Shown: one piece after another, positions 26,041-48,016 of the stretch | Position numbering within the stretch: the first letter of the stretch is position 1 | Layout of the letters: each line of letters starts with the position of its first letter | NCBI RefSeq assembly: GCF_003790525.1 | Contig: NZ_CP033635.1 | DNA from: Escherichia coli | GTDB taxonomy: Bacteria > Pseudomonadota > Gammaproteobacteria > Enterobacterales > Enterobacteriaceae | Direction: 5' to 3' (one strand) | Length of the DNA: 64,000 nucleotides | Program-made: the position numbers and the translations under genes | Notes under the pieces: model-generated | Seen by the model: the letters and a program-made list of their open reading frames with translations, nothing else | Told to the model about the DNA's origin: nothing | Database searches by the model: none

Positions 26041-26056
26041 ATTTCAGGGGTAACTC

Positions 26057-27250: not shown

Positions 27251-27258
27251 GCCATCAC

Positions 27259-32062: not shown

Positions 32063-32377
32063 AATCCACCTCTCCTGATGTTTCCTTCAGACATATGAAT
32101 TTGTCCAATTTTAAGACGGATTTCTCATTGGTAAAATGAATTGTACAGATCGTATCGATCGACAAAGTCGATCGTTAAGCAGAAAAAAGATTTATCGTCA
32201 GCGAAGATTTGTTTATGGAAATGACTGAAAAAACGGGTTAAAAAACAGACTGTTCTGTCCATGTGAAACGGGAAGTGACGGGATAAGACGTTATGTGAGG
32301 ATTGTTACGGGAAATGCTGTTTTACGTTGTTAAAATGTAACTCCGCAATGAAACTATCCCCTGTGGAGGTCCTGTAA

Positions 32378-32731
32378 ATGAACAAAGCACTCTCTTCCAT
32401 TCTGCTCATCTTCGGTATCTGTGCATCATCACTGGCCGCTGAAAAAAACAGAACCGTCAGTTTTCCACGATGTGAAGTACAGGAAGCATCAGCTGTTGCA
32501 GCCAGCGTCAAACGGGACTATCTCCAGAAACAGGTATTTCAGTGGAAAGATGATCAGGAAATTCTCGGTCAGCAGCGTCCCGTTGTCTGGGTGAATCTTC
32601 GTGAGCCGGTAAATAAAGGTGATAATGTCATCACAGTGCATCTCACTGCCCGTGGAAAGAAAGCAGATATTCAGTATCGTGTGCGCGTTGACTGTAAGAA
32701 CGGAAGTGCTACCTGGCAACGCCAGGGATGA
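32378..32731 (+). CDS. small secreted hypothetical protein
   Basis: 117-aa ORF with N-terminal signal peptide (ILLIFGICASSLAA). Confidence 0.45.
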   Translation: MNKALSSILLIFGICASSLAAEKNRTVSFPRCEVQEASAVAASVKRDYLQKQVFQWKDDQEILGQQRPVVWVNLREPVNKGDNVITVHLTARGKKADIQYRVRVDCKNGSATWQRQG

Positions 32732-32777
32732 ACGGGTGAAGTTGAATACAGAGCCCGAACGAACGGGCTCTCCATAC

Positions 32778-33350
32778 TCATCGTATATAACTGAATGCGG
32801 TGATGACGTGTTTCACCCCCGCCACGCGACTGGCGATATCAGCAGCAGCCTGTCCTTCCTTCTCTGTAACTCTCCCCATAAGAAAGACTTCACCATTCTC
32901 CGTCAGTACCTTTACATCTGACAGTTTCACCCTGCTGCTCTTCAGTAACTGTGCCCGGATTTTTGTGGTCAGCCACGCATCAGTAGCTGTTTTATCAGCC
33001 CGAAGTGGTTTTCCCGTCCTTATTTCATTCCATACCTGCACAGTCCCCTCAACACCATCTGCAATCTGACGGGCTTTTTCACCTGCACTACGGTCTGGTG
33101 CCTGCCCTGTCAGCAGTACAGTGCCCTGGTATGCTGTGACGATGATTCGCGCATCCCCCCTGAGTTGTGAGTCCTTCGACAGCGCACGGCTGACCCTTGC
33201 TTCCAGAATTTCATCATCAATCTGCGTTCCCGCACTTCGGGGGTCCACTGACACTTTAGTACCCACAGCAGCCGTACCGACCAGCGCAGCGGCAACACAA
33301 CCCTGTAACAGCAACAGAGTCGAAAGAAAAGGCAGAAACCAGCGTTGCAT
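32778..33350 (-). CDS. BON-domain lipoprotein, DolP (YraP) paralog
   Basis: Trimmed to MQRWFLPFLSTLLLLQGC lipobox start with GGAGG RBS; sequence closely parallels DolP/YraP (two BON domains, ...ASRVAGVKHVITAFSYIR). Confidence 0.75.
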   Translation of the reverse strand: MQRWFLPFLSTLLLLQGCVAAALVGTAAVGTKVSVDPRSAGTQIDDEILEARVSRALSKDSQLRGDARIIVTAYQGTVLLTGQAPDRSAGEKARQIADGVEGTVQVWNEIRTGKPLRADKTATDAWLTTKIRAQLLKSSRVKLSDVKVLTENGEVFLMGRVTEKEGQAAADIASRVAGVKHVITAFSYIR

Positions 33351-33673
33351 GGCAGAATCCTCCACGGTCTGATATCCGGAATTTCGCAGTATGACGGCAG
33401 GAATCAGCCATCACAGATACCACAAGCTTCAGAGAGTAACGAAAACGTTAAAGGAAACGGAAGTGCCTGAATGTAAAGAACGGGGAACCACACAGGGTAT
33501 GGACAAACATAATAACAATAACAGGATGAAAATATTGAATAAAAAATAAAAACCGAGACATCATCATTTGCAGTAATAGCCACCTCCTTACCGAAAAGTG
33601 TGAGTTGCCGGACATTTTTTAAACGCATGATAAGGTCTGATGATACAGTCACCCTGCAACCAGGAGGTACATC

Positions 33674-33967
33674 ATGCGTATACGTGTTTTTGGTTACCGG
33701 CACTGCCCTTCAGTCCATCGCATCATGCATCACGCAACGCGAATCCCCGATGAAATGGAACCGGATGTTGTGTTTATTGATGTCGCGAAGCACAGTGTGA
33801 CGCTGCGGGATATGGCTGACCGTGCAGGCTGCCCGGTGGATAACTTCCCGTGTGTGTTTGTTGATGATGTCTATCTGGAGCCCCTCCACCAGAACCGGGC
33901 AAACCGCACTTTACATACTGCTGAATATTTATTACCGGATATGGACAATCGCTTTCATTCGGGATAA
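33674..33967 (+). CDS. hypothetical protein, possibly thioredoxin-fold / glutaredoxin-like
   Basis: 97-aa ORF with strong AGGAGG RBS; MRIRVFGYRHCPSV... layout resembles a glutaredoxin-type N-terminus with single Cys; weak. Confidence 0.4.
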   Translation: MRIRVFGYRHCPSVHRIMHHATRIPDEMEPDVVFIDVAKHSVTLRDMADRAGCPVDNFPCVFVDDVYLEPLHQNRANRTLHTAEYLLPDMDNRFHSG

Positions 33968-34091
33968 AAAATACTGCGCGTTCCTGGTTTATTTTGCGTT
34001 GCTGTCATGACGTGTTTGCCTTCATTGCCGGGATCGCGCACTTTTTGTTATAACTCCCCGGAGGACACTGTCTGTAATCAGATGGAAACCT

Positions 34092-34526
34092 TTATCTCAG
34101 TGATGTCCTGGTTAATACAGAATACTGCCCCGGACCAAGTAACATAATGGCAATCCCCCCCATGAAATACAGCATTTCATTTTCAAGCCCCCACGCCCCT
34201 ACTTCAGTCAGTGTGAAAAACTTCCCTGTTCCGACCAGAAGCGTGGCAACAATCAGTGTCAGCGCATAAATCAGAGCAGCAGGTCTGGTAAATATCCCAA
34301 GAATGATAAGTACCGGAGCCACGATTTCACCAATATACACACCATAGGCAATAAATCCTGGCAAACCAGCATCCTGCAACATTGATATAATCCAGTTGAC
34401 ACCGTGCTCTATTTTGGCCACACCATGGAACAGCATCAATATACCAAATGTCAGTCTCAGCAACAGAAGACCTGTATCCGGGTAGTCTGTCAGTCTGGTA
34501 AAGAACATATTTATTCTTGCTGGCAT
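34092..34526 (-). CDS. DoxX-family inner membrane protein
   Basis: 144-aa ORF, 4 hydrophobic helices, DoxX-like pattern. Confidence 0.65.
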   Translation of the reverse strand: MPARINMFFTRLTDYPDTGLLLLRLTFGILMLFHGVAKIEHGVNWIISMLQDAGLPGFIAYGVYIGEIVAPVLIILGIFTRPAALIYALTLIVATLLVGTGKFFTLTEVGAWGLENEMLYFMGGIAIMLLGPGQYSVLTRTSLR

Positions 34527-35126
34527 AAAAAACCTCGTTAAACGATAACAGATAATGAAGAAACTATTATCGTTGAGTCGACACCATCAATTGACCAGAT
34601 ATTTCTGACATTCATAATCAAAAAATTTGACAAAACTGTAAACGTTCGCTTTTTATACCAACACAGAATCCACTCAGTCACACAACCTGTATGCGTCATT
34701 TCCTGCTGTTATTTAAAAAATTTCTCACGTAACAGACATTTCAAAAAAACACTAAAAAATACCAGAACAATTAAGATAATATTACGATCAAATAAGTAAA
34801 AGTCTTTTGTCTGTTATTTTTATTTTCTGTGATTACTGTCATTCTTTCACCACTTTAATTAACATCGCATAATAATCCGGGAGGTGGATAAGATATGAAA
34901 ATTAACTATCCTTTACTGGCGCTGGCGTTGAATTATTACCTGTAGAGCTCACTCCGGATGAGCAGAAAGAACCGATGGTGGCTCTTACTCCACTTTTATC
35001 CACTCCTTCACACAGCACTGTCAGTGCAGGTGCCTGAAAGATCTCGTTCCGTCACGGTAAAATGACGCTGGAAAATTCTTCACCAGAACTGCTCACTGTG
35101 TTAATTCGTGAACTGACCTGGGGGGA

Positions 35127-35285
35127 ATGCGTGGTACCCTGCTGTACGGACTAATCGGAACCTGTCGGTTGAACGGTATCGATCCGGAAGCGTATCTGCG
35201 CCATATCCTGAACGTTCTACCGGAATGGCCTTCCTGCATGGTTGATGAACTCCTGCCATGGAATATGGTGCTCCCATTGGGGTAA
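35127..35285 (+). pseudogene. IS66-family transposase C-terminal remnant
   Basis: MRGTLLYGLIGTCRLNGIDPEAYLRHILNVLPEWPSCMVDELLPWN matches the conserved C-terminal tail of IS66-family TnpC; upstream frames are disrupted. Confidence 0.6.
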
Positions 35286-35411
35286 GCGTCAATACGGCGT
35301 TCGCTTAACTTAACACTTACTTTCAAAGCCTGATATCTGTCCTACGCTTTTCCTCAATACCACATCGCCAGCAGGAAACAACCTAATGCCTGTGTTGGGG
35401 TCTGAATTACT

Positions 35412-35430
35412 AATGATAATCATTTGCATT
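35412..35430. promoter_or_regulatory. Fur box upstream of the sitA-like gene
   Basis: AATGATAATCATTTGCATT, close to the Fur consensus GATAATGATAATCATTATC. Confidence 0.65.
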
Positions 35431-35433
35431 GTG

Positions 35434-35471
35434 TATAGCTTATGCTATAAAACATAGCCGTTGCTATGTTT
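35434..35471. promoter_or_regulatory. tandem MntR operators upstream of the sitA-like gene
   Basis: AAACATAGC-cgtt-GCTATGTTT, a perfect match to the MntR box architecture, preceded by TATAGC-ttat-GCTATA. Confidence 0.7.
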
Positions 35472-35503
35472 GTTCTAATTTTACTCACTATAGGTACTGA
35501 ATT

Positions 35504-36418
35504 ATGCACTCAATAAAAAAAGTAACCATGCTCCTGGGGTGCCTCGCCCTCACCTGCTCGATAGCATTTCAGGCGAGTGCAACTGAAAAATTCAAGGTCA
35601 TTACAACATTTACCATCATCGCAGATATGGCCAAAAACGTGGCTGGAGATGCTGCAGAAGTCTCATCCATAACCAGGCCCGGTGCAGAAATTCATGAGTA
35701 TCAGCCTACCCCTGGCGATATTAAACGTGCGCAGGGGGCACAACTGATTCTCGCCAACGGTATGAATCTGGAATTGTGGTTCCAGCGCTTTTACCAGCAT
35801 CTCAGTGGGGTTCCAGAAGTGATTGTCTCTTCGGGTGTGACGCCAGTAGGGATCACCGAAGGCCCCTACGAGGGAAAACCTAACCCTCATGCCTGGATGT
35901 CGCCAGATAATGCTTTGATTTACGTCGATAATATTCGTGATGCGTTGATAAAATACGATCCGGCAAATGCAAAAACATACCAACGTAATGCCGATACTTA
36001 TAAAGCCAAGATTACCCAAACCCTTGCCCCCCTGCGTAAGCAGATTGCTGAACTCCCTGAGAATAAAAGATGGATGGTCACCAGTGAAGGGGCTTTTTCT
36101 TATCTCGCACGCGATTTGGGGCTAAAAGAGCTTTATCTGTGGCCGATAAATGCCGATCAACAAGGAACACCCCAGCAGGTACGTAAAGTGGTTGATATAG
36201 TGAAGAAAAATAATATCCCAGCGGTATTTAGTGAGAGTACGGTTTCCGATAAACCAGCGCGTCAGGTTGCGCGTGAAACCGGCGCACACTACGGCGGTGT
36301 GCTCTATGTCGATTCCCTGAGCACAGAAAACGGCCCGGTACCTACGTATATCGACCTTCTGAAGGTTACTACCAGTACGCTGGTGCAGGGAATTAAAGCC
36401 GGGAAAAGGGAGAAGTAA
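35504..36418 (+). CDS. sitA: metal (Mn/Fe) ABC transporter periplasmic binding protein, SitA/YfeA/MntC (TroA) family
   Basis: 304-aa ORF with signal peptide and TroA-like metal-binding fold; Fur and MntR boxes upstream as in sitABCD/yfeABCD operons. Confidence 0.75.
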   Translation: MHSIKKVTMLLGCLALTCSIAFQASATEKFKVITTFTIIADMAKNVAGDAAEVSSITRPGAEIHEYQPTPGDIKRAQGAQLILANGMNLELWFQRFYQHLSGVPEVIVSSGVTPVGITEGPYEGKPNPHAWMSPDNALIYVDNIRDALIKYDPANAKTYQRNADTYKAKITQTLAPLRKQIAELPENKRWMVTSEGAFSYLARDLGLKELYLWPINADQQGTPQQVRKVVDIVKKNNIPAVFSESTVSDKPARQVARETGAHYGGVLYVDSLSTENGPVPTYIDLLKVTTSTLVQGIKAGKREK

Positions 36419-36552
36419 TGATGCAATCTGCGGGTATTGTCGTTAATGGCGTTACTGTCACCTGGCGAAACGGGCAGAAAGCACTGCGCGATGCATCCTT
36501 CACAGTACCAGGCGGATCTATTGCCGCTCTGCTTGGGGTAAACGGTTCCGGT
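36418..36552 (+). pseudogene. truncated metal ABC transporter ATPase (sitB-like), first ~45 codons only
   Basis: ATGA overlap with sitA stop; N-terminus typical of an ABC ATPase (VTVTWRNGQKALRDASFTVPGGSIAALLGVNGSG) breaks inside Walker A (GSGE in place of GSGKST); downstream sequence is unrelated. Confidence 0.7.
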
Positions 36553-36900
36553 GAAATCGTCTTGACACGTTTCTGGGCTCGTCATCAGCGGTTGTTGCGA
36601 ATGATCGCCGCCCTGCGATGGTTGATTTATTTTATTGCGCCCCGGCGTCTGCCTTGCCAGGTACCGGAGGCGGGCTCTGAAGGACTGAGTAGGGTGAGCG
36701 CGTCAGGCCGCGAAGTACTGACACGGGAGTTTGTGGCAGGCAGTGAAGTCCTGACCAGGGTAAGGGAGGCGCTGACGTGCAGGTCCTGACTGTCAGCCAG
36801 GCGCATGGTGACTGACTTTCTCAATAACCCGCTGTCAGGCGCTCAACGCCCGACAGCAGGCCATGGCCCGGTGTGCAAAGACCTGACGGCAGGTGTTGTG

Positions 36901-37221
36901 TCACCCGGAGAAGGTAAATCCCTCAAGAGGCAGCAGCTCAGCCAGTCGGTCCTCAGGCCACTCCGGCAGGCGCGTCAGTACGTCCGTCAGCCAGGCATGT
37001 GGCTCCAGACCATTACGCTTTGCTGTTTCCAGAAGACTCATTATCTGTGCCGCGCGTTTGCCGGCCATCAGCGAGCCTGCGAATAACCATGCCTTTCGCC
37101 CCAGCGTGACCGGGCGGATGGCTCGTTCGCAGATATTGTTGTCCGGTGGCACAGAGCCATCATCCAGAAAACGGCACAGCTCATCAGGTCGTTTCAGGAT
37201 ATAGCTGATAGCCTTATGCAA
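36901..37221 (-). pseudogene. IS66-family transposase C-terminal fragment
   Basis: NNICERAIRPVTLGRKAWLFAGS...LLETAKRNGLEPHAWLTDVLTRLPEWP matches the conserved IS66 TnpC C-terminal region; N-terminal two-thirds missing. Confidence 0.65.
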
Positions 37222-37694
37222 TGGACTGTCTGGCGGACCGCCTGCTCCTGCTCTTGACGGTTTTTTGCCTTGTATATCAGGTTATAGACGAGAAGATTGT
37301 CGTCTTCGTGGTTTCCGTCAGGAAAAGAGAATGCTCAAAAGTGTATAGTAAGGCGGTCAAACGCATTCGCTGAAATAAGATGTGTCACTTCAGCTTTGCG
37401 TTAACACGACTATTTTTCATCACTCAAGCGGTAGTCCCGGTGACTCACACGTATACGAGTCACCGCTTCAGATTTGAGTATCCGAATTTAAATCAGGGAC
37501 ACAATGGAAGAAGCGAACACTTTCGCATCCTCTTCCTGCAATTCGCAGACTGTCACTCTGCGTCCAGTTCCCTCTTTCCTCAGCAGGTACCAACGCCAGG
37601 CTCCCGACAAAGGTTGACCTGAAACGACCAAATACACAGGAAACAAAATACTGTCAGACAGAACGAGGCGTGCTATACATCACGCCTCAATGCT

Positions 37695-38684
37695 TCAGTG
37701 GCTGATTTTTTTCAGCTGTTCTTCACTCAATCCCGTGATTTTCATGATGGTCTGAAGCCCCATTCCTTCAGCCAACATATTACGCGCCGTTTCCAGTTTG
37801 CCTTCCAGTTGTCCTTCGAGTCGCCCTTCGGCACGGCCTTCCATTCTGCCTTCCATTCTGCCTTCTAGCTTACCGCGCTCCATACCCTGGGCAATACCGC
37901 GCTCAAATCCCTTGACTTCCCCTTCCTGCTTCAGTTGTTCAGCCAGTGTCATTATGTTGCCCTCATGCTGTGGCAGCCGCTCCGCCAGCGTCTGCAAAAA
38001 CCTTACCGTCACATGTTCACTGCCGTTCAGCAGATAGTGGAACAGAGCCTTCGCCAGCTCTTCATTCAGTGAAGTCTGTATCAGCTGAACCAGCCTGTCC
38101 ATCTGCAGCATGATGTCGCGGCTGCGGCTGTGTTTCATCAGCAGCGTCAGTGCCCCCATTCGGCGGTGTTGCATTATCTCATCGTCATCCAGTACCGTCA
38201 CGTCCACCAGGTGGAACGGTCTGGTGTAGATTTTAGCAGCAAGTTCCGGATTTCTGAAACACTCCAGCCAGTTCATGCTGTACGGGTACGGGCTCCGCTC
38301 ACCGTGGTAGAATAACAGCGGGATCACCAGCGGCAGCTCATGGTGCTGTTCAAAGTGACGCTGCATCGCCGCCACCGCATATCTGAGCATCCTGAACGCC
38401 ATAAACGCGTTTTCCGTACTCTGGTGTTCCGCGAGGCAATAAATATACCCCTCCTCACCGCTGACGGTCTTCATGCTGAACAGCGCATCGCACGCATACT
38501 GTTTCAGATCCTGGTCCACAAAGGTACAGGGCTCCAGCCGCAGCGTCGACAGATCACACAACTGCCGGTATTCCGCCGGAAGATGCAGTTCAACAAAATC
38601 ACGGGCCACCTCTGCTGAGGCCATAAACGCCCTGAAGGCGGCATCATGCGGCGTGGGCGTATTTTTCTCTTTCCTGCTGCTCAC
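37695..38684 (-). CDS. Rpn-family (YhgA-like) recombination-promoting nuclease / PD-(D/E)XK putative transposase
   Basis: 329-aa ORF with characteristic Rpn N-terminus (HDAAFRAFMASAEVARDFVELHLP) and C-terminal EGR(M/A/L) tetrapeptide repeats. Confidence 0.7.
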   Translation of the reverse strand: MSSRKEKNTPTPHDAAFRAFMASAEVARDFVELHLPAEYRQLCDLSTLRLEPCTFVDQDLKQYACDALFSMKTVSGEEGYIYCLAEHQSTENAFMAFRMLRYAVAAMQRHFEQHHELPLVIPLLFYHGERSPYPYSMNWLECFRNPELAAKIYTRPFHLVDVTVLDDDEIMQHRRMGALTLLMKHSRSRDIMLQMDRLVQLIQTSLNEELAKALFHYLLNGSEHVTVRFLQTLAERLPQHEGNIMTLAEQLKQEGEVKGFERGIAQGMERGKLEGRMEGRMEGRAEGRLEGQLEGKLETARNMLAEGMGLQTIMKITGLSEEQLKKISH

Positions 38685-38918
38685 TGTTTATCTCTTCTGA
38701 ACCAGGTAACATTAACAGAACATGTTTCAGGATATCCGCGCAGTGCGGAACATTACGGCTCACCACTGTGACGGCGGATCATCGCCACCCAGTATCCGAC
38801 AGACCCCTTACTTTGTTCGTAAACATCCTTCCTGCCCCCCTGAATCTCCAGACAACCAATATCACTTAAATAAGTGATAGTCTTAATACTAGTTTTTAGA
38901 CTAGTCATTGGAGAACAG

Positions 38919-39284
38919 ATGATTGATGTCTTAGGGCCGGAGAAACGCAGACGGCGTACCACACAGGAAAAGATCGCAATTGTTCAGCAGAGTTTTGAAC
39001 CGGGAATGACGGTCTCCCTTGTAGCCCGGCAACACGGTGTGGCAGCCAGCCAGCTATTTCTCTGGCGCAAGCAATACCAGGAGGGAAGTCTTACTGCTGT
39101 GGCCGCAGGAGAACAGGTCGTTCCTGCCTCTGAACTTGCTGCTGCCATGAAGCAGATTAAAGAACTCCAGCGCCTGCTCGGCAAAAAAACGATGGAAAAT
39201 GAACTCCTCAAAGAAGCCGTTGAATATGGACGGGCAAAAAAGTGGATAGCGCACGCGCCCTTATTGCCCGGGGATGGGGAGTAA
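38919..39284 (+). CDS. insC: IS2 transposase OrfA (InsC)
   Basis: [56 protein letters not shown]...; ORF-track ORF trimmed to Met 16. Confidence 0.9.
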
Positions 39285-40147
39285 GCTTAGTCAGCCGTTG
39301 TCTCCGGGTGTCGCGTGCGCAGTTGCACGTCATTCTCAGACGAACCGATGACTGGATGGATGGCCGCCGCAGTCGTCACACTGATGATACGGATGTGCTT
39401 CTCCGTATACACCATGTTATCGGAGAGCTGCCCACGTATGGTTATCGTCGGGTATGGGCGCTGCTTCGCAGACAGGCAGAACTTGATGGTATGCCTGCGA
39501 TCAATGCCAAACGTGTTTACCGGATCATGCGCCAGAATGCGCTGTTGCTTGAGCGAAAACCTGCTGTACCGCCATCGAAACGGGCACATACAGGCAGAGT
39601 GGCTGTGAAAGAAAGTAATCAGCGATGGTGCTCTGACGGGTTCGAGTTCCGCTGTGATAACGGAGAAAAACTGCGAGTCACGTTCGCGCTGGACTGCTGT
39701 GACCGTGAGGCACTGCACTGGGCGGTCACTACGGGCGGCTTCAACAGTGAAACAGTACAGGACGTCATGCCAGGAGCGGTGGAACGCCGCTTCGGCAACG
39801 ATCTTCCGGCGTCTCCAGTAGAGTGGCTGACGGATAATGGTTCATGCTACCGGGCTAATGAAACACGGCAGTTTGCCCGGATGTTGGGGCTTGAACCGAA
39901 GAGCACGGCGGTGCGGAGTCCGGAGAGTAACGGCATAGCAGAGAGCTTCGTGAAAACGATAAAGCGTGACTACATCAGTATCATGCCTAAACCAGACGGG
40001 TTAACGGCAGCAAAGAACCTTGCAGAGGCGTTCGAGCATTATAACGAATGGCATCCGCATAGTGCACTGGGTTATCGCTCGCCACGGGAATATCTGCGGC
40101 AGCAGGCCAGTAATGGGTTAAGTGATAACAGGTGTCTGGAAATATAG
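39242..40147 (+). CDS. insD: IS2 transposase OrfB (InsD), DDE catalytic subunit
   Basis: 301-aa ORF overlapping insC in the -1 frame, as in IS3-family frameshift arrangement. Confidence 0.9.
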
Positions 40148-40291
40148 GGGCAAATCCACCTGAATCTGAGGCAGCACCTGGCACGGCTGGGACGGAAGTC
40201 GCTGTCGTTTTCAAAATCGGTGGAGCTGCATGACAAAGTCATCAGGCATTATCTGAACATAAAACACTATCAATAAGTTGGAGTCATTACC

Positions 40292-40441
40292 GTGTTCCCG
40301 ACAGACGACTCGGTGAAAAAAGTGGTGTGGCTGGCAATCCAGTCTGCGTCCCAGAAATGGACGATGCCGTTGAAGGACTGGCGAATGGCAATGAGCCGCT
40401 TTATTATCGAGTTCGGTGACCGCCTGGACGGTCACTTCTGA
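40292..40441 (+). pseudogene. IS256-family (mutator-type) transposase C-terminal remnant
   Basis: VFPTDDSVKKVVWLAIQSASQKWTMPLKDWRMAMSRFIIEFGDRLDGHF* matches the conserved C-terminal tail of IS256-family transposases; immediately right of IS2. Confidence 0.6.
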
Positions 40442-40473
40442 GAAAAGGCATTTACACAGAATCCTAAACAGGC

Positions 40474-41211
40474 TCATGTACAGCGCTGTACCGGGCAATG
40501 GGTAATACCGGTCACAACCGGTAACCCCAGAGACAATGCAACTGTTTTTAACGCAATATACTGGCCGGATGTATCACCCCGGGCAGCCTGAAAACACCTT
40601 TCCACCCGGCATTGTCCGTCAGCACTTATCACCCGCCATGTCTGTTGCAATAAATCCACCCGTTGCGAACATTCTTCATCAACCGTGGCACTGACCCGTG
40701 GATGGCAAATGCTCGTCTGGCTGAGCAGCAACAGGCATCGCATTGTTGCTCCTCCATGTTGTTCCCGCAACCAGCGTAATACCACCGGTGGTGCTGGACT
40801 GGCCGTGTGATTACGTTCAGTAATACGCTCGTGCACCTGTCGGTAAAAGGAAGTACAGAATGCATGAATCTGTTGTCCGTTGATGTTTCCTTCTGCCGAA
40901 TGGAGTGTGAAGTGGACGGCCAGCAGACGCGGCCAGTGATCCACCGCCTGCTGAATAAAACGCCGGATTTCCACCGGCTCTGAAAGTACGGTTTCGGTTA
41001 TTTGCACGATTTGATCCCCTTGAATGTTGCTGAACCGGTGTCGGTACGCAGGAAAGCACGCCGAGACCGGTACGATGCCTGTTACAGCGAAGAACGAGGA
41101 ATGACAGACGGGGGCAGCAGGTCGCCAGCACCAGGGACAGGGCTGATTTCCACAATACCAACGCTGGTATTTTGCACATTGCCAGCGTACCGGCATTACA
41201 ACACGTTTCAT
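40474..41211 (-). CDS. hypothetical protein, weakly YagK/YfjJ-like (third paralog)
   Basis: 259-aa ORF trimmed to Met 15; central segment RLLAVHFTLHSAEG... resembles the RVDLRFP-type region of the two adjacent YagK/YfjJ-like proteins; competing frames exist. Confidence 0.4.
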   Translation of the reverse strand: MKRVVMPVRWQCAKYQRWYCGNQPCPWCWRPAAPVCHSSFFAVTGIVPVSACFPAYRHRFSNIQGDQIVQITETVLSEPVEIRRFIQQAVDHWPRLLAVHFTLHSAEGNINGQQIHAFCTSFYRQVHERITERNHTASPAPPVVLRWLREQHGGATMRCLLLLSQTSICHPRVSATVDEECSQRVDLLQQTWRVISADGQCRVERCFQAARGDTSGQYIALKTVALSLGLPVVTGITHCPVQRCT

Positions 41212-41432
41212 GCTGCTGCCCCTCGTGATGCCTCGATTCGTTGCTGCATCCACTGCTCCACTTCACTTTTGTACCAGCGGCTGCTGCGCCCCAGTTTGAT
41301 GGGTTTAGGGAAATGGCCTTCACTGATCAGCTTGTAAAACCATTTGTCGGTCATACCAGTGAAGCTGGTGATGTAGTTCATGTCGATCAGGGGATCGTCG
41401 GCACGCAGCAATACGCTGTCGTGACCTGTCAT
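41208..41432 (-). CDS. alpA: AlpA-family (P4 Vis-like) transcriptional regulator
   Basis: Small ORF with FTGMTDKWFYKLISEGHFPKPIKLGRSSRWYKSEVEQWM, the AlpA/Vis HTH signature; start codon uncertain (Met 5 or Met 22). Confidence 0.7.
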   Translation of the reverse strand: MTGHDSVLLRADDPLIDMNYITSFTGMTDKWFYKLISEGHFPKPIKLGRSSRWYKSEVEQWMQQRIEASRGAAA

Positions 41433-41512
41433 TGAGGTCAACATGGTCAGAATGTCCTCTGTGAGATTTATGAATGTTGGGCAAATGCGGGTGAATCTGC
41501 TGAGCTGAGCTT

Positions 41513-42115
41513 TCAGAGCTGGCCTGCTACGGGATACCAGGGATTACCGGCGAGGTAACGGGCTTCCGGATCGCGCACACCACGACGATCGCGGGCGAAA
41601 TCACTGAACGCCCATATCAGCTCTTTGAGTCTCTCTTCGCAGTCCGGTGAACAACTGTCCAGCACCACATCCCGGGTTATCTGTTTCTGGTACGGTGCCG
41701 CTTCACCCGGTGAGGCGAAGCCCAGCACGTTGCTCCAGGCATCCAGAATCAGCCGATCCAGTTCAGGGCCGTCGAAATACTCCTGCCTGACGCACAGCAC
41801 CACGTGGTATTCCGGCTTTTCAGGATGACGTGTCAGGAGCCAGCAGAGGTCACGTCCGGGGGTTGCATTCATCAGGTCACTGACGGTTTCAATAAAGGCC
41901 ATACCGAACCAGGTCCTGCGGCTGCTGAAGGTATTATCGGGTTCCCACGGCAGACGAAGCAGGATACGTCGTATCCGGGAGCCGGACTGCTCACGCAGCG
42001 CACGGTCAAGAACGCCAATAACTTTGTTCTGATACGAGGGCCAGAAGGGTGCCATGCTGTCGTCGAAATAAGAGAAAGTATTCACAGGATATGCTCCGTT
42101 ATGCGCAGCCCACAA
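41513..42115 (-). CDS. YagK/YfjJ-family protein (inovirus Gp2-like domain)
   Basis: 200-aa ORF, TTG start; island-associated family typically next to alpA. Confidence 0.6.
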   Translation of the reverse strand: MWAAHNGAYPVNTFSYFDDSMAPFWPSYQNKVIGVLDRALREQSGSRIRRILLRLPWEPDNTFSSRRTWFGMAFIETVSDLMNATPGRDLCWLLTRHPEKPEYHVVLCVRQEYFDGPELDRLILDAWSNVLGFASPGEAAPYQKQITRDVVLDSCSPDCEERLKELIWAFSDFARDRRGVRDPEARYLAGNPWYPVAGQL

Positions 42116-42417
42116 CGCGTCCTGCCCGGGGATGGATGGGCTGACGGGTTACAGGCTGCGGATGAGGTTGATGGAACAGGTGAAGAACCGACGCTGAGCG
42201 GGAATATCAGGGAAGAACATTCAGGGTGAATGAACTCCGTTGACTTCGGTTCACATCATTAAGCAGGGCGGTAAGGTTTTACCGACAGATTGTTTCCGGG
42301 TGCGGAAGCAGATACCGCTGCTGACTTCATGACGGGTTATCAGAATACGGGATAAGGGCATTGGCTGACTCTCTTACCGTGGCATAAGTTCAGGTACCGG
42401 ATACCGTTTTACCGACC

Positions 42418-43149
42418 TCACCTGCCATCCAGCAAACGCCCCGGCCCACGGCTGCAACCATAATTACGCTGACCGGAACCATTATGCTGCTTCGTTTTAT
42501 TTTTCACGAGATAACTGGCTCTGTTCCTGGCTTTCTGCATCGCTGCCACATCACCACGCTTGATCCAGAGAACAGCGGCTTCACCCGGCTTTTTTTCTGA
42601 AGCCTTCCTGGTATCAGAACATCCACCCGACAAAGGCGTGTCATCGGAAGAAGGGCGAGCATCAGACGATGCTGGTTTACGAAAAGGCTTCCACCTGGAA
42701 AAATGGACCAGGCCATCGCCTTGCCAGGGCTCAAGATGCAGAGCGCTGCACCATGCCTCCTGGATCATCGCCGCCAGCGAAGACGGTTCGCTGAAATCCC
42801 CGAGCGAGCACCAGGTATCTTTGTTGAGCAGCAATATCACGTGATAATGTTTCCTGTTTTCTTCCTCTCCGAACTCCCGGCACCAGAAATAACGCAGGCT
42901 GGTTGCATGCACACGCTGACTGGCACGTCGCTTATGCTGCTGGTAAGCCTGGATTTTGGCTTTCAGGGATTCGAAAAAACGAGAAATCACCGCTGAATCC
43001 GGATCGGGATCCATGATGGTGACAGGCATATACTCAGGGAAACGTAAATCCACCCGGATTAACGAGACGGCACGGTGCTGCGACAGGGCACTGTCGAGAA
43101 GGCTGTCAAAACGGGATAACCAGTAAGCATTGTGTATTGGTTGATTCAT
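42418..43149 (-). CDS. YagK/YfjJ-family protein (inovirus Gp2-like domain)
   Basis: 243-aa ORF; ...SLIRVDLRFPEY... motif; paralog of 41513..42115. Confidence 0.65.
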   Translation of the reverse strand: MNQPIHNAYWLSRFDSLLDSALSQHRAVSLIRVDLRFPEYMPVTIMDPDPDSAVISRFFESLKAKIQAYQQHKRRASQRVHATSLRYFWCREFGEEENRKHYHVILLLNKDTWCSLGDFSEPSSLAAMIQEAWCSALHLEPWQGDGLVHFSRWKPFRKPASSDARPSSDDTPLSGGCSDTRKASEKKPGEAAVLWIKRGDVAAMQKARNRASYLVKNKTKQHNGSGQRNYGCSRGPGRLLDGR

Positions 43150-44722
43150 GATGAGAGATCTCCGTTGATTTGGATTGACTTCACATCATTAATCACCGCG
43201 GTAAAACTTTACGGCATCATGTCATTAAGCAATGCTACAACTCTCTGATTAAGAGTGATTGAAACGGAACAAACCATCCCGGAACGAAAAGATAATCCTG
43301 CACACAGCAGCAAAACACGCAACAACAGCATGAATGGATTTAAAAACGACATGGACGACGAGAAAAGCCTGAAGGGAAAAGGATCCACAGAACATTCGAA
43401 CAAAACACCAGAAACGCAACCAGAACGCTTCCTGGCAATGCAAATCAACAACAACACCAAAACCTACAGCTTAATCACACAACTCAATCACGAATGCGAA
43501 TGACACGTTTAAAACCTGTTTACAGATAACGTCGTAACAAGATCATCCCCATCAGAATCGATTTTCTTATCTTGAGTATGTTACTTTTCAACATACCTAA
43601 ACGATTAACCACCGATAACGTAAATCTCATCTGAATCAAAACACCAAAACCAATCATCACGTTTTCGACAGAAGAAAAACACCACATCATGACAAAAAGA
43701 ATGACCTTACACGGAAAAGAAAAACGTCAGGAATCGTTAATGCATACCTCAATCTGATTGTTATCAAAACATCCAGAAAGTCGTTTAACAGAATCGTCGT
43801 AAGCACATCGAAAAGAACGTCAGATCACCTCAGGAAAGTTCGGGTTGATTTAGCGTAAAGATACTTTTCTCAGCTTAACGTCGAAACACAAACCAAAAAC
43901 CACAAACAACCAAAGCTCAGGAAAGGTTAAACGTCACATCAGTAAAATCGAATAGCAGATTGATTGCTTAAACAGGAAGGATTGTTTTACAGCAGCATTA
44001 AACTGATTTAGTTAACGTAAAATCAGAACTGACAGGTTTACTAACTTGGATGTGTATCAGTTCAAAAATGTGTACAGCAATGCGTAATGAAACACATTTA
44101 AAGGAGATTAATGGGAAAAGTGTGTAAATGCGTAAACATGCACTAATGAATCACTGAAGGAATACATACAAAACGACTTAATGAAAACATAAAAGGACCT
44201 AATGGAAAAGGTGTATATAATACCATATCCGACATTCTCAACATCTTAAGACATCCATGCAGACTGAATGTTGGTTTCAGTTTTTCACGGTAAGCATGAA
44301 TCTTTTCTGTTCAAAAGCAGAGCAGATTTACTCTGGAATTATTTTTCTTACTCCGTATTCTGTACAGCAAAAACTTGTGCTAACTTTACAGCAAACCATC
44401 ATAATCAGCGTCTGTAGTCCCATCGCTTTACCCCATGAAAGTGAATCCATATGATGCGAGAGAGATAAGTCATCGTATCCGGTAAACACTGCTAACCATA
44501 ACATAAGATCATTCAGTCAGTTTTATCTCTGAACTGACGATTATGGCATGCTCATTTATATGGCTCACAGAGGAGTGTTATTATCTGTAAGCTTTAATCA
44601 TCAAATCACATGACCATACCAAACTGGCGCTATATCAGCTCATTTGACACCCCTTCCCTTTAGATTTCTTTATGTGTTTTTTGTCGATAATTAAAATGTA
44701 ATATGAATTTAATATTTTTACA

Positions 44723-45946
44723 TCATAAACACCATTTAAAACCATTATCCTGAACATCATACAACAATATATTTTTACTAAAGCATGAATTGTATATTTC
44801 TATTAATTCAGGAAAATTATCAGGATTCACCTTTAAATTCACCTGAATGTTACGCCTAATTTCACCCAGCAGTTTTTCATGCGTGAATTTTATTATTTCT
44901 TTATCATAATCTATAAATTCACACATGTTTTTTATGAATTCAAACCCTTTTCCTGTATACAGTTTGATGAATGCCACAAGAGCAAACATTTCAAGATGCA
45001 GCCATAATGCCACGTGAGTTTTTCGCAAAGTATAAAAAATTGAATTCACCTCTTTTTTACTTATTGCTCTTTTGTACTGTGAGTGTGCCAGATTCAGTAG
45101 TGGCAATTCTCTCTCGATAAATGAAAGTGAAAAAGGCGGGTAAATTGATGTCGGAAATATTTTAGGTCTTATGATATTTTCTATTTCCACCATAAATCTA
45201 TCCATAGAAAGAAAATCATTTTCTTTTTTTATTCTGGTATAGAGACCGCCTTTATTTCTTACTGCGACTTTTTTTCGTGCTACCCCCCCCAACACTTCCT
45301 CTAATTGTTTATTTATCTTCGTATCATTAAATACAACCATTCTTCTTATCATCCTGGGAAGGATGATAATATCAGAGCTTGAATCACTTGAACGGTAATT
45401 ATTATTGATCCATGCAACTTCAAGTTGAAGTATCGGAACATTAAATTCTCTGGGGTTAATAACTCTCTGATATTGTTTTTTGTATGCGTTTTTATTAAGA
45501 TATTCTCTGCTGTAGAGAAACTTATAGCAATATAATCTGACAATATCCTTTATGTAAGATTTAAATGAGTCACCTGTAACAGATATATTTTTTCTGCTCA
45601 GTAACTCCTGTGTATTGAGCCATTCCCGTGACCGGAGTACTCCCTTATGAAGACTTTTTCTTACTTGCATTGAACTGCGCAATTGATGTAATATTTTTGC
45701 GTCCTCAACAATTCTCTTTCCCGTTTGATTTCTTGCAGCATCTATTACTCTGTCAAATATCTCCCGGTCCAGACTTTTGTCATATTTACTGATTATACGA
45801 CAAATATTCCTGACCCGACGGTTCTCTTTATTTCGTTTCCATAACTGATAATGATCATCACATAACCTCAGGGCATTTGCCTCATCAAATTCTGAAACAG
45901 GATTGCTGCATTTTTTATTCCGACAGATACCTTTGTTTTTAGCCAT
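44723..45946 (-). CDS. hypothetical protein (407 aa), AT-rich orphan with Cys-rich N-terminus
   Basis: Long uninterrupted ORF in strongly AT-rich DNA; N-terminal CRNKKCSNP...CDDHY suggests a metal-binding motif; no family recognised. Confidence 0.6.
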   Translation of the reverse strand: MAKNKGICRNKKCSNPVSEFDEANALRLCDDHYQLWKRNKENRRVRNICRIISKYDKSLDREIFDRVIDAARNQTGKRIVEDAKILHQLRSSMQVRKSLHKGVLRSREWLNTQELLSRKNISVTGDSFKSYIKDIVRLYCYKFLYSREYLNKNAYKKQYQRVINPREFNVPILQLEVAWINNNYRSSDSSSDIIILPRMIRRMVVFNDTKINKQLEEVLGGVARKKVAVRNKGGLYTRIKKENDFLSMDRFMVEIENIIRPKIFPTSIYPPFSLSFIERELPLLNLAHSQYKRAISKKEVNSIFYTLRKTHVALWLHLEMFALVAFIKLYTGKGFEFIKNMCEFIDYDKEIIKFTHEKLLGEIRRNIQVNLKVNPDNFPELIEIYNSCFSKNILLYDVQDNGFKWCL

Positions 45947-46046
45947 ACTCTTCTTCCCGTCAATGGAAAATTTTTCACGTCCATATTACCTGACTGAGAG
46001 ACCGGATTAATGTGATCCGGTTCAGTGAAATCAACAGGATACCGGT

Positions 46047-46931
46047 ATGTCATTCAGCCATTCTTCCCTTTCCGCACACGTAAAATCACATCTGACCTTT
46101 CTTCCTGAAGAAATACGCCAGAAAATCCTTGAATATCTTCACAGCGTCATTCAGTACGAACCCGTGATTGGCATTATGGGTAAATCCGGTGCCGGAAAAA
46201 GCAGCCTGTGCAATGCCATTTTTCAGTCCCGTGTCTGCGCCACGCATCCACTGAACGGCTGCACCCGTCAGGCTCATCGTCTTACCTTTCAGCCTGGTGA
46301 ACGCAGAATGACGCTCGTCGATCTGCCCGGCACTGGCGAAACACCACAGCATGATCAGGAATACCGGGCACTTTACCGTCAGTTACTGCCCGAACTGGAT
46401 CTGATTATCTGGATCCTGCGTGCTGATGAACGTGCGTATGCTGCCGACATCGCCATGCATCAGTTTTTACTGAATGAAGGTGCCGATCCCTCGCGTTTTC
46501 TGTTTGTTCTCAGCCATGCTGATCGCATCCACCCGGCTGAAGAATGGAACAGCCAGAGCAACACGCCATCCCGTCAGCAGGAACTCTCACTGGCAACAGT
46601 AACAGCCCGGGTGGCAACCCTGTTCCCTTCATCATTTCCGGTACTCCCCATAGCTGCCCCTGCAGGCTGGAATCTTCCGGCATTTGTGTCACTGATGATC
46701 CACGCCCTGCCACCACAGGCAACCAGCACGGTTTATTCGCATATCCGGAATGAAAAGCGCACTGCGCAGGATCAGCAACACGCACAGCAGGCTTTTGGTG
46801 ACGCCATCGGCCAGAGCTTTGACGCGGCCATTGCCCGGTTCAGCTTTCCGGCCTGGATGCTGCAGCTTCTGCGTAAAGCCCGTGATCGCATTATCCGCCT
46901 GCTGGTCACACTGTGGGATCGCCTGTTCTGA
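46047..46931 (+). CDS. YfjP/YeeP/YkfA-family GTPase (CP4-type island protein)
   Basis: 294-aa ORF with P-loop GKSGAGKSS and DLPG switch motif. Confidence 0.8.
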   Translation: MSFSHSSLSAHVKSHLTFLPEEIRQKILEYLHSVIQYEPVIGIMGKSGAGKSSLCNAIFQSRVCATHPLNGCTRQAHRLTFQPGERRMTLVDLPGTGETPQHDQEYRALYRQLLPELDLIIWILRADERAYAADIAMHQFLLNEGADPSRFLFVLSHADRIHPAEEWNSQSNTPSRQQELSLATVTARVATLFPSSFPVLPIAAPAGWNLPAFVSLMIHALPPQATSTVYSHIRNEKRTAQDQQHAQQAFGDAIGQSFDAAIARFSFPAWMLQLLRKARDRIIRLLVTLWDRLF

Positions 46932-47116
46932 ATTTCCCCGCTTTTTGACCGGCACAGACGATGACCAGGGAACGCATTTCCGGCGGCTTTACCACAATGC
47001 TGAAGGGCTTTTGGTAAACCTCATTCATTTCATCCATCAGGCAGCGTCTTCTCCGGGAGATGCGGCTTTTTCATTGATTACGTCAGTCAGTCTTAACCAC
47101 TGATAAGGAGCAAAGT

Positions 47117-47935
47117 ATGCGATTAGCCAGTCGTTTTGGTTATGCGAACCAGATACGCCGTGACCGTCCGCTGACACATGAAGAGCTGATGCACCATGTG
47201 CCCGGGATTTTCGGGGAGGATAAGCACACCTCCCGGAGCCGGAACTATACATACATCCCCACCATCACCGTGCTGGAAAGCCTGCAACGGGAAGGCTTTC
47301 AGCCGTTCTTTGCCTGCCAGACCCGCGTGCGTGACCCGGGACGCCGGGGATACACAAAGCACATGCTGCGTCTGCGCCGTGACGGGGAGATAAACGGACA
47401 GCATGTCCCTGAAATCATCCTGCTCAACTCCCATGACGGCACCTCCAGCTACCAGATGCTGCCGGGTTACTTCCGGTTCGTGTGTCAGAACGGATGTGTC
47501 TGTGGTCAGTCTCTCGGAGAGGTGCGTGTCCCGCACCGGGGAGACGTGGTGGACAGGGTCATTGAAGGGGCTTACGAGGTGGTGGGCGTGTTTGACCGGA
47601 TAGAGGAAAAGCGTGATGCCATGCAGTCACTGATTTTACCACCACCGGCTCGTCAGGCGCTGGCACAGGCCGCCCTGACTTACCGTTATGGTGACGAACA
47701 TCAGCCCGTCACCACCGCCGACATTCTGACACCACGACGCCGGGAGGATTACGGTCAGGACCTGTGGAGTGCTTATCAGACCATCCAGGAGAATATGCTG
47801 AAAGGCGGGATTTCCGGTCGCAGTGCAAAAGGAAAACGTATCCATACCCGGGCCATTCACAGCATTGATACCGATATAAAACTCAACCGCGCATTGTGGG
47901 TGATGGCAGAAACGCTGCTGGAGAGCATGCGCTGA
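47117..47935 (+). CDS. DUF932-family protein (YfjQ-like)
   Basis: 272-aa ORF in the canonical position after the GTPase. Confidence 0.65.
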   Translation: MRLASRFGYANQIRRDRPLTHEELMHHVPGIFGEDKHTSRSRNYTYIPTITVLESLQREGFQPFFACQTRVRDPGRRGYTKHMLRLRRDGEINGQHVPEIILLNSHDGTSSYQMLPGYFRFVCQNGCVCGQSLGEVRVPHRGDVVDRVIEGAYEVVGVFDRIEEKRDAMQSLILPPPARQALAQAALTYRYGDEHQPVTTADILTPRRREDYGQDLWSAYQTIQENMLKGGISGRSAKGKRIHTRAIHSIDTDIKLNRALWVMAETLLESMR

Positions 47936-48016
47936 TGCCGTTTCCCTGAGTGAGGGAATCATTCAGCTTTCGTTCCTGAAAAACACACATTTATTTGTTA
48001 TTTAAGGAGTTATCTC

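Follow-up and report, generated by a model that had tools for sequence, protein, structure and literature searches.

A strand-skewed, non-coding stretch in the backbone of a CP4-57/CP4-44-type island of Escherichia coli

Islands whose core genes include IntY, AlpA, RadC and an inovirus-Gp2-like gene have been described in Pseudomonas (PMC12595487). The stretch analysed here (positions 43150–44722 of a window of 64,000 nucleotides, that is, the whole DNA examined) lies in the backbone of an E. coli island of the CP4-57/CP4-44 type, between a Gp2/YagK gene and a gene for a protein of 407 amino acids (aa), and searches of the literature on YagK/YfjJ and inovirus Gp2 turned up neither a description of this region nor a function for it. 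We describe its anatomy and distribution, its neutral-like rate of change, its missing coding and structural signals and the conservation of short blocks across genera. The non-coding stretch is real but probably ordinary: the reading we prefer, with about an even chance of being right, is that a divergent control region between two core modules encloses a spacer that is nearly neutral. If that is true, what is gained is mostly housekeeping knowledge: annotators can treat the gap, of which about 1.2 kb is common to the islands, as truly non-coding throughout an E. coli island family that is widespread.

Setting of the stretch in the island

The features discussed below are, in window coordinates:
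42418–43149, minus strand: HUH Rep-like gene of the 'inovirus Gp2 family' (YagK_YfjJ_C), 243 aa, from Pfam and PHROG matches.
43150–43250, no strand: putative Gp2 5′ control region, with conservation of 1.0–0.9 in 30 variants and invariant columns in alignment A1.
43250–44040, no strand: non-coding spacer, A/C-rich on the top and G/T-rich on the bottom strand, delimited by composition and with no ORF, RNA structure or protein homology.
43337–43625, no strand: most skewed 289-nt sub-segment, an exchangeable cassette swapped in some islands.
44085–44207, plus strand: iteron-like array of short same-strand repeats, here of the TAATGRRA type.
44214–44252, plus strand: block A′, a perfect TATAAT (44216–44221) followed by a conserved CCGACATTCTCAACATCTTAAGAC.
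44328–44342, plus strand: block B, the 15-mer TTACTCTGGAATTAT, at the edge of a variable cargo slot.
44343–44722, no strand: unskewed 3′ flank of the 407-aa gene, present only in islands that carry this gene.
44723–45946, minus strand: orphan 407-aa gene, GC about 33%, with an N-terminal Cys/His cluster.
46047–46931, plus strand: YeeP/YkfA/YfjP-like GTPase gene, from NCBIfam GTPase matches and the RefSeq annotation of a 99.7%-identical copy.

The Gp2 gene matches Pfam PF11726 (6.9e-37), REP_ORF2-G2P (3.6e-6) and replication-initiation families of PHROG, and its translation displays HYHVILLL (HUH) and YLVK motifs; with a dN/dS of 0.27–0.31 and an intact ORF in 24 of 26 copies, it heads a leftward module that continues, following the RefSeq annotation, with a hypothetical gene, an AlpA-like HTH gene and a second YagK/YfjJ gene. 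The rightward module begins with the GTPase, followed by DUF932, antirestriction, RadC and CbeA/CbtA genes. The 407-aa protein has no match in Pfam, PADLOC or PHROG, and its AF2 model (pLDDT 69.7) matches no PDB fold, but homologues at 32–37% identity occur in Citrobacter and Klebsiella, where they lie upstream of AlpA and a Gp2-like gene on the same strand. One homologue cluster is labelled 'Reverse transcriptase' in UniRef, a label that finds no support in Pfam or PADLOC matches or in a YxDD motif. The 3′ flank of the gene (44343–44722) shares a 38-nt similarity with the 3′ flank of the Klebsiella homologue.

Composition, rate of change and coding potential

Between 43250 and 43950 the top strand consists of A 0.417, C 0.237, G 0.155 and T 0.191, and the AT skew over these 700 nt, +0.374, is the maximum of the 64-kb window (mean 0.019, s.d. 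0.10), equalled in absolute value, with opposite sign, only over the membrane-protein gene rhtA (22987–23886). The A-rich, T-poor top strand that an earlier note on this DNA had seen over about 1 kb is a property of about 43250–44040 and not of the whole of 43150–44722, with 44360–44722 unskewed (A 0.31, T 0.33). GC content is 0.36–0.43, compared with 51% in the host. Every E. coli haplotype compared has the skew, which is weak overall in the corresponding gaps of Enterobacter and Serratia (+0.09 to +0.10) and weak or absent in the gene-free gaps of Rouxiella, Brenneria, Morganellaceae, Klebsiella and Citrobacter. By these comparisons the strong skew is essentially E. coli-specific, and an ORF-free gap of 0.4–1.7 kb is general across genera.

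Among 5426 complete E. coli genomes, 1877 (35%) have pieces of the stretch, the first 187 nt most widely, and query positions 1–870 or 1–1211 recur in many genomes; at least 80% of the query is covered in 53. Some APEC strains carry copies at 97%. DNA similarity extends to four plasmids, all from E. coli, and to no phage, and a protein-pattern scan of species genomes returned only two close copies, both in metagenome-assembled genomes. The spacer is a recombination mosaic of haplotypes 65–75% identical, and many of its indels have lengths not divisible by three. Its most skewed 289 nt give way, in islands of the L009/L012 type, to about 1150 nt that contain a gene for 176 aa; this cassette is found in 1388 of the 5426 genomes at 78–92% identity.

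Relative to the homologous copy L005, the raw difference of the window's spacer is 0.23 (Jukes–Cantor about 0.27), and dS (Nei–Gojobori) is 0.27 for Gp2 and 0.32 for the GTPase; on these estimates spacer divergence is close to the synonymous rate of the flanking genes, that is, about neutral. Some internal blocks (for example, 43390–43490 and 43550–43650) are nonetheless conserved at 0.92–0.96, contrary to plain neutrality. The earlier description of unusual strand-biased non-coding DNA thus stands for composition, but this is DNA that changes at a roughly neutral rate. Counts of major-to-minor allele changes, among which G>A on the top strand is the commonest per site, put the skew near compositional equilibrium, which suggests that it is not decaying. 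Since it is near equilibrium, selection or a strand-specific mutation bias is conceivable, and either could account for an excess of A over T and C over G beyond what neutrality alone explains; the unexplained skew would matter only if it is shown to be selected.

The claimed poverty in ORFs is borne out, as ORFs are only 39–83 aa long and none keeps its position or frame across seven homologous copies; on the preferred reading, the short ORFs sometimes annotated here, such as a 57-aa 'hypothetical protein', would be spurious. Six-frame protein searches returned no real homologue for the plus frames in a set of 5.8 billion proteins and, for the minus frames, nothing from 1.8 billion representatives but junk ORF calls made on this very locus. 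Spacer frames had no homologue in PHROGs, and tblastn with every neighbouring protein from relatives gave no match to the spacer. In the majority consensus of 30 variants, the longest stop-free run is 89 codons, compared with 86 ± 20 in shuffled sequences.

These results leave the suggestion of a decayed gene without support from the protein searches, tblastn or the consensus, and we consider it unlikely that the stretch is the remnant of one or more ancient genes in which frameshifts and stops piled up, with the bottom strand as the former sense strand. Such a remnant would fit the bottom-strand composition (T 0.42, G 0.24), which is that of a membrane-protein sense strand, co-directional with the flanking genes and matched in skew elsewhere in the window only by the coding strand of RhtA; it would also fit the neutral-like rate, the plentiful indels and the real genes that the slot holds in relatives (176, 270 and 352 aa). 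Yet the searches are empty, the consensus brings back no longer ORFs, the period-3 signal of the spacer is not distinctive and the substitution pattern suggests a skew that is maintained, not decaying.

Conserved edges and the repeat array

Constraint sits at the edges of the stretch: in roughly 60–100 nt beside Gp2, in the iteron-like array, in the TATAAT box with its block, and in the 15-mer. The first 60 nt or so next to Gp2 do not differ between the E. coli variants; they contain a palindrome, ACCGCGGT (43195–43202), and a GGAG Shine–Dalgarno sequence. In Enterobacter and Morganellaceae the DNA upstream of Gp2 has a like layout (GTTGATTT, palindrome, TAAAA). Scans of this 5′ region gave no canonical sigma-70 promoter.

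Block A′ is a candidate rightward promoter and start region, and a divergent minus-strand −10-like element (TATGGT/TATGAT) abuts it. All seven copies retrieved without the pattern (L003–L008 and L011) have its 24-mer, identical but for one position that is A in the window and C in the seven others; metagenome copies were retrieved by the 24-mer pattern itself, and conservation of the 24-mer among them is by construction. A related TATA(A/T)TACCA(A/T)T-CC(G/A)ACA aligns to block A′ in Enterobacter, Serratia and Rouxiella. Simple sigma-70 scans found no conserved plus-strand promoter, one weak minus-strand promoter and no strong conserved one; a minus-strand promoter-like match falls at block A′ in 15 of 30 variants.

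Block B occurs once in the window. Enterobacter ludwigii and Serratia marcescens have an exact match at the syntenic site, and Rouxiella has one with three mismatches. It always lies 473–559 nt upstream of an RHH/CopB-like regulator gene, the C-terminal domain of whose product weakly matches replication-regulatory repressors of the RepA2/CopB type (NCBIfam NF010256, 1.3e-4; Pfam RepB-RCR_reg, 0.0019). To the right of block B, sequences split at once into several cargo types.

The earlier note had reported dispersed repeats that contain AACGTC. This hexamer occurs five times against 0.5 expected, which is not significant after correction for 4096 hexamers, and in alignment A1 the homologous copies do not keep its sites; we therefore rejected it as a binding motif. 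Internal direct similarity is weakly in excess (top five self-hits summing to 117 compared with 89 ± 6.5), but profile HMMs for repeat units gave E ≥ 0.07, and degenerate tandem units of about 128/250 nt, suggested by self-BLAST offsets, found no support in them. What does survive among the short motifs is the pair taatgggaaaagtgtg / taatggaaaaggtgta, part of a real local array in which TAATG recurs at 44085, 44109, 44144, 44179 and 44200, and TAATGRRA occurs four times within 123 nt, compared with 13 times on both strands of the whole window (128 kb of strand). In the L003/L004/L005 lineage the array is of an AAAYACKT type, clustered only here within 9-kb loci, and L003 has five copies of one 9-mer (shuffle mean 2.4, maximum 4). 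Repeats are spaced by 21–35 nt in the window and by 11–24 nt in L003. Among 30 variants the array is the least conserved sub-region (0.41–0.75).

Such an array resembles the 'bind' loci, made of direct repeats, in the origins of rolling-circle plasmids, and it resembles iteron origins; the stretch may possibly be an iteron-type origin. The earlier note had raised this, rightly in that an array exists in the neighbourhood of a HUH Rep-like gene, but the array is at 44085–44207 and not in the AACGTC motifs. As an origin for the excised island, Gp2 would bind the array and nick nearby, for example in the conserved block 44229–44252; the strand-asymmetric, AT-rich tract would be an unwinding or displaced-strand region, and the G/T richness of the bottom strand a trace of time spent single-stranded. 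The HUH and YxxK motifs and Rep-family matches of Gp2, the same-strand repeats with their spacings and the constrained block adjoining them are in line with this, as is G>A as the commonest top-strand change, which is consistent with deamination of C on the bottom strand. However, some 0.9–1.1 kb separate array and rep-like gene, and neither the skewed core nor the array has a DnaA box or IHF site. An IHF consensus is absent throughout 43100–44750, and the sole DnaA-box match at up to one mismatch, a 9-mer with one mismatch, falls at 44682, where it belongs to the 407-aa gene's 3′ flank and is about 470 nt away from the array. A GATC scan of the stretch was unremarkable. The candidate nick region has the conserved 24-mer (44229–44252) but no conserved hairpin, and an ATCCTG-like hexamer of the consensus, ATCTTG in the window (43574–43579), is expected by chance. 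Array type does not co-vary with Rep lineage (at 26 loci, distances between Gp2 genes and distances between arrays have a Spearman correlation of 0.04), the conserved blocks keep a fixed distance from the RHH regulator gene and not from Gp2, the skewed tract is missing in other genera with the same Gp2 module, and the region is not found in phage records. We give this origin model a low probability.

Under the preferred reading of a spacer within a divergent control region, the backbone segment would part the leftward module (407-aa gene, Gp2, AlpA-like gene) from the rightward one, from the YeeP GTPase onward. The 60–100 nt adjoining Gp2 would be its control region, and 43250–44040 an E. coli-specific A/C-rich spacer that evolves at about a neutral rate, recombines freely, is partly exchangeable and gives no hint of a sequence-specific product, whether protein or structured RNA. 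The array, the TATAAT box with its block and the 15-mer (44085–44342) would form a cis-regulatory module, most likely the promoter/operator of the GTPase module, bound by an island-encoded DNA-binding protein. In the putative ancestral layout this module lies 0.5–0.6 kb upstream of the RHH/CopB-like regulator gene heading the GTPase module; in the window a reverse-oriented 407-aa gene would have replaced the regulator, so that 44343–44722 would be merely the 3′ flank of the newcomer. Minus-strand transcription probably crosses the spacer, which would make it an untranslated tract between two cistrons; Rho would act poorly on the resulting G/U-rich, C-poor RNA and well on its A/C-rich antisense counterpart. 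The elements shared across genera (the TATAAT box with its CCGACA block, and block B about 0.5 kb upstream of the regulator), together with the lineage-variable array, would then offer handles on the control of the poorly understood Gp2/AlpA and YeeP–DUF932–antirestriction modules of CP4-type islands, and may help to show why this position is a hot spot of cargo exchange.

RNA-based readings and resemblance to known systems

The earlier note had also proposed a long non-coding RNA. An Rfam 15 scan at E ≤ 1 gave no match in the stretch and only one in 40000–48000, a chance miRNA inside the 407-aa gene (23.7 bits against a gathering score of 70), and nine homologous or syntenic loci gave none at gathering thresholds. 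Folding of single sequences (sliding RNAfold, both strands) gave z of about 0 (range −1.75 to +2.7). For 13 diverse variants, RNAalifold gave consensus energies between 0 and −15 kcal/mol, which were equalled after shuffling of the columns (z > −2.6); the stretch lacks the conserved structure of long RNAs of the OLE/GOLLD/ROOL kind. Candidate hairpins at 44263–44283 and 44306–44335 are not maintained across variants. We rejected an sRNA of about 120 nt running from the TATAAT box to terminator-like hairpins (44229–44348), as the arms vary without compensation and the U-tract is missing in some variants. A ToxI-like type III toxin–antitoxin RNA is matched neither by repeats, TRF finding no tandem array in the skewed tract, nor by position, the region being downstream of the 407-aa gene.

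Another reading is a long RNA that is unstructured by design. A transcript with little besides A and C has nothing to pair with, and the predicted plus-strand MFE across the skewed core is weak (−12 to −24 kcal/mol per 150 nt). In 78-nt windows the plus-strand C/G ratio has a median of 1.38 and exceeds 1.5 in 44%, compared with 11% window-wide; on this strand only, the RNA would be C-rich, G-poor, unstructured and untranslated like a rut tract, a compositional resemblance only. It could act as an A/C-rich titrator or loader of Hfq or Rho, or the tract could be selected as 'one-way', letting minus-strand transcription pass from the 407-aa gene to Gp2 with Rho killing antisense transcripts. Co-directional flanking genes on the minus strand, the tight same-strand series of 407-aa homologue, AlpA and Gp2 in Klebsiella and Citrobacter, and a skew near equilibrium would suit such a role, but the tract has no defining promoter or terminator (the hairpins at 44306–44335 are weak, with no compensatory changes), its sequence drifts at a neutral rate, its most skewed 289 nt are dispensable and other genera do without the skew. 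GGA motifs are only mildly enriched (18 compared with 11.5 expected). Of the signals of an RfaH/ops or boxA antitermination leader, ops (GGCGGTAG) has no match at up to one mismatch in 43100–44750, and only a partial boxA-like TTTAACA at about 43784 was spotted by eye. We regard both versions as very unlikely, and it is similarly a long shot that the A/C versus G/T asymmetry is selected and not accidental, as a compositional transcription 'diode' or insulator of about 0.8 kb. Such a diode, G/U-rich, C-poor and Rho-resistant toward Gp2 and A/C-rich, unstructured and Rho- or Hfq-loading the other way, would be present in between a quarter and a third of E. coli genomes. A leader of the 407-aa gene is not supported, because that gene runs leftward (minus strand, start 45946, stop 44723), which places the stretch 3′ of it.

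Among known systems, CsrB/RsmZ and CrcZ sRNAs share with the stretch an A-rich RNA with repeated short motifs (GGA, and AAC/CAA runs), but it has no hairpin-presented motifs, defined transcript or Rfam match and drifts at a neutral rate. Rut tracts and targets of Rho/H-NS silencing are similar in that the top-strand RNA is A-rich and unstructured with C over G and the DNA AT-rich, whereas here the C/G bias is of moderate size and recurs elsewhere in the window, and Rho has no need of the feature that stands out, A>>T. Iteron and rolling-circle (HUH Rep) origins have in common with the stretch same-strand direct repeats, a constrained block and a HUH Rep-like gene; unlike them, it has no DnaA or IHF site near the array and no conserved nick hairpin, and its array, about 1 kb from the rep gene, does not co-vary with Rep. 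The int–alpA–rep control regions of P4, CP4-57 and PICI-like elements differ in that the stretch is unusually long (1.2–1.7 kb) and, in E. coli only, strongly skewed; as in those regions, it sits between oppositely oriented core modules, combines the 5′ control region of a rep-like gene with a repeat array and a promoter-like box, and borders a variable cargo slot.

Distribution and island setting of the stretch

The gene-free stretch at 43150-44722 is a real, widespread and unannotated feature of an ordinary kind, and no description of it was found in the literature searched. Parts of it occur in 1,877 of 5,426 complete E. coli genomes, in up to seven copies per genome; the portion found most widely is its first 187 nt, many genomes hold nt 1-870 or 1-1211, and the whole 1,573 nt was found only alongside the 407-aa gene (53 genomes). 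Among plasmids only four carry it, all from E. coli, and the stretch was not found in phage records.

The window carries a mosaic pathogenicity-type E. coli island with a CP4-57/CP4-44-type backbone. An annotated copy of the stretch in strain HCM-24C-3, 99.7% identical, gives the surrounding features.

Features annotated in the HCM-24C-3 copy, in window coordinates
42418-43149 (-): 'inovirus Gp2 family protein' (Gp2)
1573-nt gap between the Gp2 and 407-aa genes: sole call, a 57-aa 'hypothetical protein'
44723-45946 (-): 407-aa hypothetical protein
beyond the 407-aa gene (+): YeeP-like GTPase, DUF932, antirestriction protein, RadC, DUF987, CbeA/CbtA, DUF5983, DUF957, DUF4942

With both flanking genes on the minus strand, Gp2 has the stretch on its 5' side and the 407-aa gene has it on its 3' side, which excludes the earlier note's proposal of a leader for the latter. 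The Gp2 protein matches YagK_YfjJ_C (6.9e-37), REP_ORF2-G2P (3.6e-6) and phage replication-initiator PHROGs, and carries the motifs HYHVILLL (HUH) and YLVK. Two genes past it is a frameshifted ProQ/FinO-family gene (matching RefSeq records), and left of the Gp2 module (window ~24000-40200) lie a tyrosine integrase, a TPR protein, sitABCD and several IS elements, a segment that matches other APEC-type genomes. ARAGORN found no tRNA genes in the whole 64 kb.

Constrained edges of the stretch

The best-supported reading, to which we give about an even chance, is a composite non-coding control region with cis-element edges and a drifting, E. coli-specific middle. One edge would be the Gp2 control region: the ~60-100 nt adjoining the Gp2 start are invariant or almost so, and their layout recurs upstream of Enterobacter and Morganellaceae Gp2 homologues with a protein identity of only 37-43%. 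The other edge, probably the operator/promoter of the rightward module, combines a repeat array, a promoter-like box and a 15-mer.

Elements of the right edge
44085-44207: same-strand array of five TAATG(R)-type repeats
44216-44221: perfect TATAAT, then the block CCGACATTCTCAACATCTTAAGAC, directly right of the array
44328-44342: TTACTCTGGAATTAT, single occurrence in the window

The array, of which a TAATGG.. pair had been noticed earlier, is genuine and local. Its sequence is the least conserved of any sub-region while the repeat architecture is retained: the lineage of comparison loci L003/L004/L005 has, in the same place, five to six AAAYACKT repeats, with almost none elsewhere in 9 kb. The block CCGACATTCTCAACATCTTAAGAC is present in all seven copies that were not retrieved by pattern, varying at one position (A in the window, C in the others). 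Enterobacter ludwigii and Serratia marcescens each have an exact TTACTCTGGAATTAT at the syntenic site, with its orientation unchanged, and Rouxiella has a version with three mismatches. The element always lies 473-559 nt upstream of the same gene; in these three genera a related TATA..TACCAAT-CCAACA block is found to its left, at a distance of 75-100 nt. A search for strong conserved sigma-70 promoters found none.

Iteron-like repeats near an HUH Rep gene would also suit a replication origin, as had been proposed, in this case a Gp2-dependent one, and the array does stand beside such a gene. The array and Rep do not co-vary, however, and origin hallmarks were not found, making an origin improbable. 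Neither ops, IHF nor DnaA sites occur in the skewed core (43250-44040) or the array; a lone DnaA-box 9-mer with one mismatch, at 44682, lies in the 3' flank of the 407-aa gene.

Composition and drift of the middle

Between these edges, the composite control region would hold an E. coli-specific spacer that can freely drift, recombine and be exchanged. Its A-rich, T-poor top strand was borne out (43250-43950: A 0.417, C 0.237, G 0.155, T 0.191), and the AT skew over these 700 nt, +0.374, is the highest in the window (mean 0.019, s.d. 0.10). The skew spans ~43250-44040, and 44360-44722 is unskewed. Within the window it is equalled in size only on the coding strand of rhtA, a membrane-protein gene (EamA-family exporter, 22987-23886 (+), AT skew -0.365), which shows that membrane-protein coding does produce such values. 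The neighbours of rhtA are eptA-like (20499-22082), ompX-like (22131-22652) and dps (24045-24689) genes.

The membrane-protein-like composition of the bottom strand would fit an ancient decayed gene, a reading made equally doubtful by the lack of homology: family and protein searches gave no match in any frame, with minus-frame matches limited to short junk ORFs that annotations of other genomes place on this same DNA, and tblastn with neighbouring proteins from relatives found no trace. Per-site change from G/T to A/C exceeds the reverse, G>A being commonest, in major-to-minor allele counts that are not properly polarised; this suggests, as a lead and not a result, a composition near equilibrium rather than decaying. 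The same lead points to strand-specific mutation bias (for example, a non-template or displaced bottom strand) or weak selection.

A known or structured RNA found no backing, as Rfam had no match in the window or nine related loci, neither strand folded better than its shuffled versions and consensus energies of 13 diverse variants were near zero; the least likely reading is an RNA unstructured by design or a one-way Rho-polarised tract.

ORF poverty also held: the ORFs are 39-83 aa, vary from one homologous copy to another and do not exceed the length expected from composition. The RefSeq 57-aa call at 43330-43503 (+) (WP_157806645.1 or WP_023150487.1 in other genomes) is probably spurious, because it is broken or out of frame in L005, L006, L007 and L008. 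The dispersed AACGTC repeats did not stand up, with five observed against 0.5 expected, not significant over 4,096 hexamers, at sites unconserved in other copies. Self-similarity only weakly exceeds shuffles, and profile HMMs gave no support for internal repeat units. Two repeated sites, 43723-43740 and 43816-43830, show a parallel GT-to-AC change between haplotypes, AACGTCAG(G/A) in the window/L004 type versus ACACCAGG or ACGCCAGG in the L003/L005/L006 type, which could be concerted evolution of a putative binding site or chance (rough P ~0.01-0.05).

Across 30 distinct copies aligned from E. coli genomes and gut-metagenome contigs, identity is 76-100% and many indels are not multiples of three. 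Identity per 100-nt bin flips between ~100% and 65-75% in different pairs, indicating a recombination mosaic of deep haplotypes. Against L005, 23% of aligned positions differ (~0.27 after Jukes-Cantor), close to the dS of Gp2 (0.27) and the GTPase (0.32), whose dN/dS values are 0.2-0.3; the bulk of the stretch thus evolves at about the neutral rate. At the skew peak, 43337-43625 (289 nt) is swapped in L009/L012-type islands for ~1,150 nt with a 176-aa gene (L009 4178-5330, E. coli strain 100416), with no repeats seen at the breakpoints. The A/C-rich version is the commoner (1,388 genomes), and ~13 metagenome loci also have the alternative (anchor-to-block distance ~1,840-1,900). From its motif W..ADE..L......LGRTP..V, the cassette protein looks Myb/SANT-like.

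Gene order in related islands

Islands across Enterobacterales set a leftward module of Gp2 and AlpA against a rightward one, and an ORF-free gap of varying length separates the two.

Length of the ORF-free gap
Morganellaceae: 407 nt
Brenneria: 745 nt
Rouxiella: 1105 nt
Serratia: 1423 nt
Enterobacter: 1686 nt
E. coli: about 1700 nt

The gap is strongly A-rich only in E. coli; the other genera have overall AT skews of -0.11 to +0.10. The Enterobacter and Serratia tracts upstream of the regulator (L013 2217-3902, L064 2343-3765; 1.4-1.7 kb) have C>G and little A>T skew, with GC skew as low as -0.40, and the Enterobacter tract has its own short repeats (TGATA(A/G)TA-like; ATGGTTTTATC three times).

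The rightward module runs from a 262-323-aa protein, the regulator, through GTPase and DUF932 to antirestriction genes. The regulator family has weak matches in a C-terminal CopB/RepA2-like (ribbon-helix-helix-type) segment (NCBIfam NF010256, 1.3e-4; Pfam RepB-RCR_reg, 0.0019); it heads the module in five genera and is absent from the window's island.

Members of the 262-323-aa family in comparison loci
L004: 5698-6486
L013: 1248-2216
L015: 3634-4593
L063: 3927-4895
L064: 1374-2342
L065: 4284-5255

The 407-aa gene (GC ~33%), a true orphan, encodes a conserved N-terminal C..C...C..H cluster, and its product has no match in Pfam, PADLOC, PHROG or a PDB-fold search; the name 'Reverse transcriptase', given to one UniRef cluster of a homologue, is supported by nothing in this analysis. 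Its family (316-439 aa) adjoins the YeeP GTPase gene in islands of E. coli, Citrobacter and Klebsiella. In the latter two it is encoded upstream of AlpA and a Gp2-like gene, all on one strand, and the gaps there measure only ~320-370 nt and are unskewed. Judged by this comparative gene order, the window's island is a hybrid, in which the rightward control module has been kept and the regulator gene replaced by the reverse-oriented 407-aa gene.
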